From NCBI RefSeq assembly GCF_053078305.1, contig NZ_CP166879.1: a stretch of DNA of 64,000 nt; one strand, written 5' to 3'. Numbering within the stretch: position 1 is the first letter of the stretch; every line of letters starts with the position of its first letter. Shown here in pieces: positions 21,647-23,629 of the stretch. The translations under genes and the position numbers were made by a program. The notes under the pieces were generated by a model. That model made no database searches, was not told the origin of the DNA, and worked only from the letters and a program-made list of their open reading frames with translations.

Positions 21647-23629
21647 ATGGTGGAAAGAACCATGGCATTTAAACACTACGATGTGGTCAGGGCGGCGTCG
21701 CCGTCAGACCTTGCGGAGCGACTGACTCAAAAACTGAAGGAGGGGTGGCAGCCATTTGGCAGTCCTGTCGCCATCACGCCTTATACCCTGATGCAGGCCA
21801 TTGCGGCGGAAGGTGATGTCACCACACCTGTGCTGGTGAAGCCGTCGGATGGAGAAGGCACAGTTATCAGCACCACCAGCGAACCGGAGTATTACTTTGT
21901 TGTTGTTCTGGCGGGGCAGTCAAACAGCATGGCATATGGTGAAGGCCTTCCGCTGCCGGAGACATATGACCGTCCGGACCCGCGTATTAAGCAGCTGGCG
22001 CGCCGCAGTACGGTGACACCGGGCGGTGCCGCCTGTAAGTATAACGACATTATTCCGGCGGACCATTGTCTGCATGATGTGCAGGACATGAGCCGTCTTA
22101 ACCATCCGAAAGCGAACCTGTCAAAGGGGCAGTACGGAACCGTGGGGCAGGGGCTGCATATCGGCAAAAAACTGCTGCCGTTTATACCGGCGAATGCGGG
22201 CATTCTGCTGGTTCCGTGCTGCCGTGGTGCTTCGGCATTCACAACGGGTGCAGACGGCACATACAGCGAATCAGCCGGTGCATCGGAAAATTCACTGCGC
22301 TGGGGTGTGGGTAAGCCGCTGTATCAGGATTTGGTGAGCCGGACTAAAGCCGCACTGGCGAAGAACCCGAAAAACCGTCTGCTTGCGGTGGTGTGGATGC
22401 AGGGAGAAGGTGATGCGGCAGTGGGGACGCATGCGCAGCATCCGGGGCTGTTTAGTGCGATGGTGAATCAGTTCAGAACGGAGCTTGCCGGTCTGGCATC
22501 ACAGAGCACAGGAGGCAGCGCATCAGCGGTACCGTGGATTTGCGGGGACACAACGTATTTCTGGAAGCAGCGTCATGCGGAAGGGTATGCATCAGTATAC
22601 GGAGGGTATAAGGGTAAGGAGTCGCAGAACATTTTCTTTGTACCGTTAATGACGGATGAGAATGGTGCGAATGTGCAGACCAATGACCCGGCAGAAGACC
22701 CGGACCTGGAAGCCGTCGGTTATTACGGTTCAAAGTGGCGTAATGACCAGAAGACCTGGACATCTGTGGACAGGGCAAGCCATTTCAGTTCATGGGCACG
22801 CCGTGGGATTATTTCCGACCGTCTGGCAACGGCGATTCTGGTGCATGCCGGGAGAACTGCTGAATTCATTACCGGAAAACAGCCTGATACGGTGAAGCCC
22901 ACCGGACCTTCCGGTGAAGGCCCGGAGAGAGAGCCGGAAGCCCCGGTCAGTAACCGAACCCTGATGAGTCTGCTGGCGTCCGGTGAAGACCTGGCATCAC
23001 AGGGCTGGCGCTATTATCACAAACCGGCGAGCGGAGACAATGTTGATAAAAACATCGCTGAGGCTGTGGTCAGTGATGAGGGTGCCACCGGTGGTAAGGC
23101 CCTGCAACTGAACAAACCGGAAAGCCACATCTGGTTTCTGGAGCATGATGCCGCCGGGCAGGGGGCAGAGTTGCTGAAGAAAGGCGGACGTGTGAGCGTA
23201 CGGTTTAAGGTGCCGGGCTCACTGGTGCCGAATCAGTTTGCCCTGGGTATTTACTGGCAGTTGTCGTCCCTGCCGGAGGGAGTGACGCTGGCAGAGGAAG
23301 GCAACGACATGCTGATGTCCTTCTTCCTGCAGACGGATGCGACGAACCTGAACGCGATGTACCACAAGAAGCAGAATGCGAAGCTGGATACGTTCGGGGT
23401 CTTTGATAACGGATGGCACACACTGGCTTTTGAGTTTGCCGGAAACAACAGCATTCAGGTGACGCCGGTACTGGATGAGAAACGGGGTACACCGTTCACA
23501 CTGGTGAAATCTCCGGCATCAGGGGCGGCGGACAAACTGCAACTGACAGGCATATCAAAGGCGGCGACATATACGTTGCTGATTGACAGTGTGAAGGTGG
23601 AAGTGAACAACGCGGACGCCGCGGCATGA
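21647..23629 (+). CDS. nanS: NanS-p-like sialate O-acetylesterase
   Basis: 660 aa; VVVLAGQSNSMAYGEG esterase motif; location after Q-tRNA region. Confidence 0.7.
   Translation: MVERTMAFKHYDVVRAASPSDLAERLTQKLKEGWQPFGSPVAITPYTLMQAIAAEGDVTTPVLVKPSDGEGTVISTTSEPEYYFVVVLAGQSNSMAYGEGLPLPETYDRPDPRIKQLARRSTVTPGGAACKYNDIIPADHCLHDVQDMSRLNHPKANLSKGQYGTVGQGLHIGKKLLPFIPANAGILLVPCCRGASAFTTGADGTYSESAGASENSLRWGVGKPLYQDLVSRTKAALAKNPKNRLLAVVWMQGEGDAAVGTHAQHPGLFSAMVNQFRTELAGLASQSTGGSASAVPWICGDTTYFWKQRHAEGYASVYGGYKGKESQNIFFVPLMTDENGANVQTNDPAEDPDLEAVGYYGSKWRNDQKTWTSVDRASHFSSWARRGIISDRLATAILVHAGRTAEFITGKQPDTVKPTGPSGEGPEREPEAPVSNRTLMSLLASGEDLASQGWRYYHKPASGDNVDKNIAEAVVSDEGATGGKALQLNKPESHIWFLEHDAAGQGAELLKKGGRVSVRFKVPGSLVPNQFALGIYWQLSSLPEGVTLAEEGNDMLMSFFLQTDATNLNAMYHKKQNAKLDTFGVFDNGWHTLAFEFAGNNSIQVTPVLDEKRGTPFTLVKSPASGAADKLQLTGISKAATYTLLIDSVKVEVNNADAAA

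Follow-up and report, generated by a model that had tools for sequence, protein, structure and literature searches.

A nanS-p sialate O-acetylesterase gene in the late region of a toxin-less lambdoid prophage of Escherichia coli

A 64,000-nucleotide (nt) stretch of Escherichia coli DNA (contig NZ_CP166879.1 of assembly GCF_053078305.1; "the window") carries, in the late region of a lambdoid prophage, an open reading frame (ORF) predicted to encode a three-domain sialate O-acetylesterase of the NanS-p family, with intact catalytic motifs. This gene, nanS-p, very probably encodes a functional esterase in a late operon that depends on the antiterminator Q, within a toxin-less sibling of the phages that carry the Shiga toxin (Stx) genes stx2b. 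Domain architecture, catalytic motifs, the position of the gene between Q with its tRNA genes and the holin gene, and the exchange of the cassette upstream of it were observed here; the function assigned to it draws on studies of homologs.

The nanS-p gene and its predicted product

The ORF is uninterrupted on the plus strand from 21647 to 23629 (660 codons), and its translation includes the GQSNSMAYGEG motif, as stated in a preliminary description of this DNA made from its letters. The start can be refined. The true start codon is likely the second ATG, at 21662, which gives 655 amino acids (aa): a GGAAAG Shine-Dalgarno sequence precedes it with a 4-nt spacer, and none was found before the first ATG at 21647; the second ATG is the annotated start of RefSeq homologs; the PHROG and Pfam alignments of the ORF begin at residues 6 to 8 in the 660-aa numbering; and homology with the Stx2b prophage of E. 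coli 2012EL-2448 resumes at 21661, i.e., at the start of nanS-p.

21662..23629, plus strand: nanS-p, prophage sialate O-acetylesterase, 655 aa (660 aa from the alternative ATG at 21647)
21662-21817, plus strand: DUF1737 domain of nanS-p (Pfam, 58 bits; aa 8-55 in the 660-aa numbering)
about 21881-22840, plus strand: SGNH type II esterase domain of nanS-p (Pfam SASA, 44.3 bits; cutoff, 24.8)
about 23027-23626, plus strand: C-terminal lectin-like jelly-roll (DUF6645) domain of nanS-p (Pfam, 155 bits)

The Pfam hits for DUF1737, SASA, and DUF6645 all exceed the curated cutoffs. The family phrog_143 aligned to the protein end to end (1082 bits), the NanS (YjhS) structure PDB 3pt5 matched its central 320 residues (aa 74-393; E=9.5e-118), and the C-terminal domain matched that of a crystallized NanS-p (PDB 6yp6; E=1e-61). 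None of the NCBIfam models searched with the protein matched. The preliminary description had proposed a nanS-p-like sialate O-acetylesterase, had suggested a profile comparison, and would have given up the proposal had esterase homology been absent; the SASA, phrog_143, 3pt5, and 6yp6 matches bear it out.

In an alignment with L0105 of phage 933W, vb_24B_21 of phi24B, "yjhS" of JLK-2012, and two chromosomal alleles, the SGNH blocks GQSN (aa 85-88), WMQGE (aa 245-249), and RASH (aa 371-374) are invariant. The predicted catalytic residues are Ser87 in GQSN and His374 in RASH. These motifs have counterparts in the Ser19/His301 dyad and the oxyanion residue Gln18 of NanS (PMC9063846), and the block IV motif of NanS-p proteins is described as "RSSH or RASH" (PMC10462455). 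The ratio of nonsynonymous to synonymous substitution rates (dN/dS) is 0.36 to 0.39 relative to the nearest alleles, from which few substitutions separate the gene. Besides the NanS-like SASA/SGNH domain with its conserved blocks and the flanking DUF1737 and lectin-like domains, the genomic setting is also that of a nanS-p gene: a lambdoid late region, between Q and the lysis cassette, with integrase, repressor, and replication genes upstream.

The variable segment between Q and the lysis genes

The left end of the window contains rspA/rspB, 99% identical to many E. coli genomes, followed by a prophage integrase gene; the prophage that hosts nanS-p is lambdoid and is integrated beside rspB. 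Its late region begins with DUF968 and RusA genes, followed by a Q-type antiterminator gene (DUF1133), and continues as follows.

17522..18094, plus strand: Q-type late antiterminator (Pfam DUF1133, 346 bits; Phage_antitermQ, 32 bits)
18659..19717, plus strand: DNA N6/N4 methyltransferase, part of the conserved late backbone (Pfam N6_N4_Mtase, 151 bits)
19758..20009, plus strand: three phage tRNAs, with CAT anticodon, Arg-TCG, and Arg-TCT (ARAGORN, Rfam tRNA)
20023..20046, plus strand: terminator-like hairpin after the tRNAs (terminator scan)
20179..20610, plus strand: tciA, TerB family, 143 aa (Pfam TerB, 60 bits; cutoff, 24.4)
20607..20771, plus strand: tciB, small DUF3927 membrane protein, 54 aa (Pfam DUF3927, 59.5 bits; cutoff, 25)
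20837..21049, plus strand: STnc100-family small RNA (sRNA) gene, between tciB and iraM (Rfam RF02076, 140.9 bits; gathering threshold, 47; model positions 1-206 of 206)
21073..21408, minus strand: iraM-like anti-adaptor gene, 111 aa (NCBIfam NF007393, 161.1 bits; cutoff, 121; aa 1-109 of 111)
23769-23948, plus strand: DUF1378 gene (Pfam, 129 bits)
about 23988-24234, plus strand: DUF826 gene (Pfam, 144 bits)
24311..24526, plus strand: class II (P21-type) holin, start of the lysis cassette and downstream limit of the Q-to-S region (Pfam Phage_holin_2_1, 111.5 bits)
25554-26087, downstream of the holin gene: lysozyme
27512-27979, downstream of the lysozyme gene: Rz

Comparison with the Stx2b prophage delimits the variable part of this region. 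The segment from the methyltransferase gene to the tRNAs is 97.6% identical between the two and ends at 20057, just past the tRNA terminator hairpin; homology is regained at 21661 (95.1%), and identity runs at 95 to 97% from the nanS-p start codon through the lysis genes. Between these breakpoints the Stx2b prophage has stxA2b/stxB2b and the window has the stress-related genes tciA/tciB and iraM. The sole element retained within the variable stretch is an island of ∼190 nt at 72% identity (2012EL-2448 extract 8672-8851). This island, between tciB and iraM, was considered as a remnant of stx and rejected, as it is a full-length STnc100 sRNA gene by its Rfam match.

The window contains no stx sequence. 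Tblastn of the Stx2a and Stx2b subunits against all 64 kb gave only chance hits (E of at least 0.66), blastn of the stx2b region against the window matched only the STnc100 island, and the arrangement that defines an Stx-converting phage, stxA/stxB downstream of Q and the tRNAs, was not found. The comparison thus supports the view that the host prophage is a toxin-less sibling of the Stx2b phages in which the stx/tci cassette has been exchanged, by loss or by gain. The preliminary description had noted the absence of an adjacent stx, had placed TerB-like and AT-rich genes in the upstream slot, and had suggested a toxin-less relative or an exchange of cargo; the first is confirmed over the 64 kb, the second agrees with the TerB (20179-20610) and DUF3927 (20607-20771) genes and the G+C content of 31 to 33% at 21050-21650, and the third is supported by the breakpoints at 20057 and 21661.

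The features flanking the exchange are shared with Stx phages. The tRNA trio is the cluster that precedes stx in these phages, annotated ileZ/argN/argO in 933W (the CAT tRNA being tRNA-Ile/ileZ), and 933W carries an annotated "terminator upstream of the stx genes" at the position of the hairpin. The methyltransferase gene is annotated in the prophages of both E. coli STEC1590 (NZ_CP129345.1) and 2012EL-2448, and the order nanS-p, DUF1378, DUF826 is common to these two prophages and phi24B. The swap boundaries (the tRNA terminator, STnc100, and the nanS-p start codon) are where recombination could interconvert toxin-less and Stx prophages. STEC1590 carries both versions of the scaffold, tciAB-iraM-nanS-p at ∼2.017 Mb and the stx2b operon at ∼1.324 Mb, and these could be substrates for exchange by homologous recombination.

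The cassette in the toxin slot consists of two overlapping, co-oriented TerB and DUF3927 genes, with tciA in the place that stxA has in Stx phages. The start of tciA was picked from the sequence (AAAGGAAC precedes the ATG); its homolog in STEC1590 is the RefSeq "tellurite resistance TerB family protein," and tciA is also found in phage JLK-2012. The tciB gene, named after the JLK-2012 annotation, overlaps the tciA stop codon. At the nucleotide level the pair is 88.8 to 95.7% identical to tciA/tciB of JLK-2012 and PPyecE_EH1910. A literature search on tciA/tciB turned up only papers on Trypanosoma cruzi genotypes.

The STnc100 gene ends in a GC-rich terminator hairpin (21019-21038), has a fold z score of −2.4, and occurs at the equivalent position in five loci (933W, the Stx2b prophage, STEC1590, JLK-2012, and vB_EcoS-640R1). 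In Stx phages this conserved element follows stxB, and STnc100 has been located 75 nt downstream of stx2 (PMC12370729). Its retention without stx argues against a regulatory role restricted to stx, once hypothesized from an 11-nt complementarity to stxB. The adjacent iraM gene, a predicted IraM anti-adaptor homolog by its NF007393 match, is antisense to the late operon, lies within the AT-rich stretch (31 to 33% GC, 21050-21650), and is annotated by RefSeq in STEC1590.

The scaffold has a conserved order, namely tRNAs and terminator, slot 1, STnc100, slot 2, and nanS-p, with the two slots exchangeable. In slot 1, Stx phages have stxAB and the window has tciA/tciB; in slot 2, 933W has AsxR on the minus strand (extract 3985-4037), the Stx2b prophage has a 283-nt spacer, and the window has iraM on the minus strand. 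The minus-strand regulators of slot 2 are an anti-sRNA (AsxR, 933W) and a homolog of the RpoS-stabilizing anti-adaptor IraM (window), and the slot seems to be reserved for antisense payloads expressed in the lysogen. Phage vB_EcoS-640R1 (extract 4428-5895) has two tandem STnc100 genes, minus-strand iraM, and then a stand-alone 68-aa DUF1737 gene that replaces full-length nanS-p, a natural form of the locus with DUF1737 alone; iraM precedes a stand-alone DUF1737 gene in phages other than JLK-2012.

Further modules of the late region also differ among relatives. The Q allele is not that of the STEC1590 and Stx2b prophages, homology to both being lost over 17508-18178, where the window has a DUF1133-type Q and its closest relatives have a 273-aa antiterminator. 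After the holin gene (24528-25168), a 328-aa DUF1327-containing ORF (24531-25517) stands in place of the 185-aa hypothetical protein of the closest relatives. A second DNA methyltransferase gene (N6_N4_Mtase; 26580-27515, plus strand) lies between lysozyme and Rz, as it does in the Stx2b prophage.

Predicted role of the esterase and alternative explanations

Mucin sialic acids are substrates of recombinant NanS-p enzymes (PMC8065619). NanS-p alleles from prophages with and without stx have esterase activity, give cells an advantage in growth on Neu5,9Ac2, and are up-regulated when the prophage is induced (PMC8065619, PMC10462455), and nanS-p transcripts increase in Shiga toxin-producing E. coli under inducing conditions (PMC10462455). 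By analogy, induction of the prophage would lead through Q antitermination to transcription of nanS-p from the late promoter, and the product, predicted to lack a signal peptide, would be set free when the phage lyses the cell. With a Ser-His dyad and a Gln/Gly oxyanion hole as in NanS, its SGNH domain would then strip the 9-O-acetyl group from Neu5,9Ac2 on mucin glycans; the C-terminal carbohydrate-binding-like domain may assist deacetylation, and the freed sialic acid could become usable by surviving sibling cells. The tciAB genes, STnc100, and iraM would be separate payloads, with iraM presumably driven by a promoter of its own in the lysogen.

Several points weigh against this account. The prophage is interrupted twice, in the portal gene and in gpZ, and induction and lysis may be impaired. 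The strong terminator at 21019-21038 and antisense iraM sit between the tRNAs and nanS-p, so that nanS-p expression depends on antitermination, and a consensus scan of the plus strand from Q to the holin gene revealed no sigma-70-like promoter and did not locate the late promoter pR′. The C-terminal domain shares just 57% identity with the crystallized one, and of the four aromatics with a proposed sugar-binding role in the phi24B domain, one is kept, two are changed from Tyr to Phe, and one falls in a gap. In addition, a preprint on phi24B makes the case that the protein belongs to the virion and is not only an enzyme that benefits the lysogen (bioRxiv 10.64898/2026.04.10.717836).

Were NanS-p primarily a structural component of the virion, a DUF1737 hexamer would anchor in the pores of the capsid hexons and show or deliver the esterase for interaction with mucus, and nanS-p would be a late structural gene rather than cargo. 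Cryo-electron microscopy and proteomics found the DUF1737 of phi24B NanS-p (gp84) bound to the central hexons of a T=9 capsid as a hexameric decoration (bioRxiv 10.64898/2026.04.10.717836); the window protein has a full DUF1737 (58 bits), 67% identical to that of phi24B, and its gene shares the late operon with morphogenesis genes. However, the head here is of the lambda type (Nu1, gpA, W, lambda-family portal, S49 protease, gpD, and gpE) rather than the podovirus head of phi24B. In the Stx2b prophage, a 100% identical DUF1737 occurs alongside an HK97-like head unrelated to this one; the domain therefore does not covary with capsid type, which indicates that nanS-p travels with the Q-to-S module and not with the capsid genes and speaks against a fit to one specific capsid. 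The loop that bears the "tooth" Tyr42 of phi24B is three residues shorter here, the proposed SSP processing motifs are absent, and the prophage as it stands cannot make particles, its portal gene being split and gpZ truncated. We consider a primarily structural role unlikely, if still worth keeping in view. It is quite improbable, in our estimation, that DUF1737 is a head-type-independent capsid anchor and NanS-p a portable mucin-active decoration on many lambdoid virions, not just on T=9 phi24B; if it were, the Q-to-S module would include a structural gene whose recombination is independent of that of the capsid genes.

The esterase could instead aid infection by de-O-acetylating surface polysaccharides (O-antigen or O-acetylated polysialic capsule) and so exposing receptors. 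This was raised as an open possibility in a review (PMC8065619) and would fit both the virion association reported for phi24B and a weak match to a PHROG "tail protein" family (E=2.7e-5), but the cited sources offer no experimental support for it, the nearest homolog with a solved structure is a metabolic esterase specific for sialate (E=1e-117), and recombinant NanS-p acts on mucin sialic acids; we give it little credence. Hardly any probability attaches to the remaining alternative, that nanS-p is a decaying and now functionless remnant in a defective prophage. The 11.8-kb island in the portal gene and the Mu-like prophage in gpZ speak for it, yet the ORF is full length with every catalytic motif intact, alleles of 98% identity with dN/dS below 0.4 exist in several other genomes, and insertions like that of the island are reversible and site specific; a pseudogene was rejected on the intact ORF, the intact motifs, and dN/dS. 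A functional NanS-p esterase produced from the Q-dependent late operon remains the account that we favor.

Insertions in the host prophage, occurrence, and known relatives

The first interruption is a satellite island of 11.8 kb (32104-43942) that splits the lambda-family portal gene into halves at 31278-32150 and 43876-44709; the second is a Mu-like prophage at about 48950-64000, which starts directly after the truncated gpZ (Pfam match, 157 of 190 positions).

32299-33540: island integrase
33542-33799: island AlpA (52 bits; cutoff, 21)
49764-49246, minus strand: repressor-like gene of the Mu-like prophage
50184-52292: MuA
52364-53296: MuB
54650-55180: Gam
58453-58962: GemA

Other island genes encode Bro-N, an Ash-domain protein, a RepA/AAA_25 helicase, a single-stranded DNA-binding protein, a gpE-like major capsid protein, a gpD-like protein, the product of a connector-like ORF, and a Nu1-like terS product. 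A 13-bp imperfect direct repeat, AAAGCCAT(T/G)TATG, marks both ends of the island, and taking the island out in silico yields a portal ORF of 530 aa. On the portal profile, the first half stops at position 241 and the second picks up at position 235, and a described site of helper-embedded phage-inducible chromosomal islands (PICIs) is named B:Phage_portal_2:241 (PMC10111431). With its int-alpA-replication-late gene order, its co-orientation in a late gene of the helper, its att repeats, and its described site, the element has the features of, and is classed here as, a helper-embedded PICI. The junction of int and portal recurs in many E. coli genomes, and the right-hand 8.7 kb of the island is found elsewhere with other integrases (e.g., between roxA and phoQ in RM14516). 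Two short copies of the sequence upstream of the helper Nu1 gene (the cos region), at 42067-42149 (plus; 83 bp, 90% identity) and 42941-43015 (inverted; 76 bp, 88% identity), flank the island's own Nu1-like terS, which suggests cos mimicry for island packaging. The Mu-like insertion is probably irreversible.

In a survey of 5,426 complete E. coli genomes, nanS-p-like sequence was found at 7,919 places in 2,258 genomes, and stx-like sequence at 1,094 places (735 stx2-like and 359 stx1-like), so that at most ∼14% of nanS-p loci can adjoin a toxin operon. The preliminary description had stated that the esterase normally lies just downstream of the Shiga toxin genes; such placement does exist, as in the stx2b prophage of 2012EL-2448, but "normally" overstates it. 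The gene is known from non-Stx prophages (PMC10462455), and a preprint on Pas sRNAs describes an esterase-sRNA-holin-lysozyme arrangement with TerB as a conserved neighbor and reports that <3% of such chromosomal loci adjoin stx (bioRxiv 10.64898/2026.05.13.724894). The toxin-less arrangement is thus ordinary and already known, having been both deposited and published (JLK-2012; PMC10462455; bioRxiv 10.64898/2026.05.13.724894). The full tciA-tciB-iraM combination was present in 9 of the 5,426 genomes, each half being very common, and the annotations of STEC1590 and a few other genomes show a layout identical to that of the window, at 98.5%. As recognized previously, the Q-to-S late region of lambdoid E. 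coli prophages is built as a modular scaffold, and stx is just one among the several payloads that can be interchanged in it; nanS-p is its near-constant companion and has a much wider distribution than the toxin. In annotation and in the assessment of risk, neither nanS-p nor the ileZ-argN-argO tRNA cluster should be taken to mark a Shiga toxin phage.

The Stx2a phages 933W (L0105/Z1466) and phi24B (vb_24B_21/gp84; C-terminal domain, PDB 6yp6) have the same three domains and SGNH motifs in NanS-p, and the gene occupies the same place, after the tRNA cluster and STnc100 and before DUF1378, DUF826, and the holin gene. Identity of their proteins to that of the window is 66% at the amino acid level overall (DUF1737, 67%; esterase, 77%; C-terminal domain, 57%). 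The window protein differs in its linkers, which are unrelated to theirs and have no SSP motifs, and in the absence of one of the four sugar-site aromatics, and the window itself has no stx upstream and has a lambda-type rather than a podovirus head. The Stx2b prophage allele of 2012EL-2448 (WP_044860938) is closer, at 97% amino acid identity with a 100% identical DUF1737, and its flanks are 95 to 98% identical from the methyltransferase gene and tRNAs through the lysis genes; that prophage differs in having stxA2b/stxB2b in slot 1, the 283-nt spacer in slot 2, another Q allele, and another head module.

Among stx-less relatives, phage JLK-2012 of E. coli O55:H7 (JQ347801) has the order Q-tRNAs-tciA-tciB-yjhS-S-R-Rz. 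Like the window, it has the TerB/DUF3927 pair where stx would be, with STnc100 and a nanS-p homolog after it; unlike the window, its tRNAs are Asn, Thr, and Gly, iraM is absent, and its NanS-p is 60% identical (C-terminal domain, 32%). The prophages of STEC1590 (NZ_CP129345, 2.009-2.029 Mb) and FHI_NMBU_10 (NZ_CP046539) share the layout of the window, including iraM, with nanS-p 98.5% identical in nucleotide sequence. That of FHI_NMBU_10 is also integrated adjacent to rspB. That of STEC1590 differs in its Q allele, its post-holin ORF, and an intact portal gene with no embedded island. Finally, the esterase domain of chromosomal NanS (YjhS, PDB 3pt5) aligns end to end with that of the window protein, with the catalytic Ser and His and the oxyanion Gln conserved, but NanS has neither a DUF1737 domain nor a lectin-like domain at its C terminus, and it is a member of the nan regulon instead of a late operon in a prophage.

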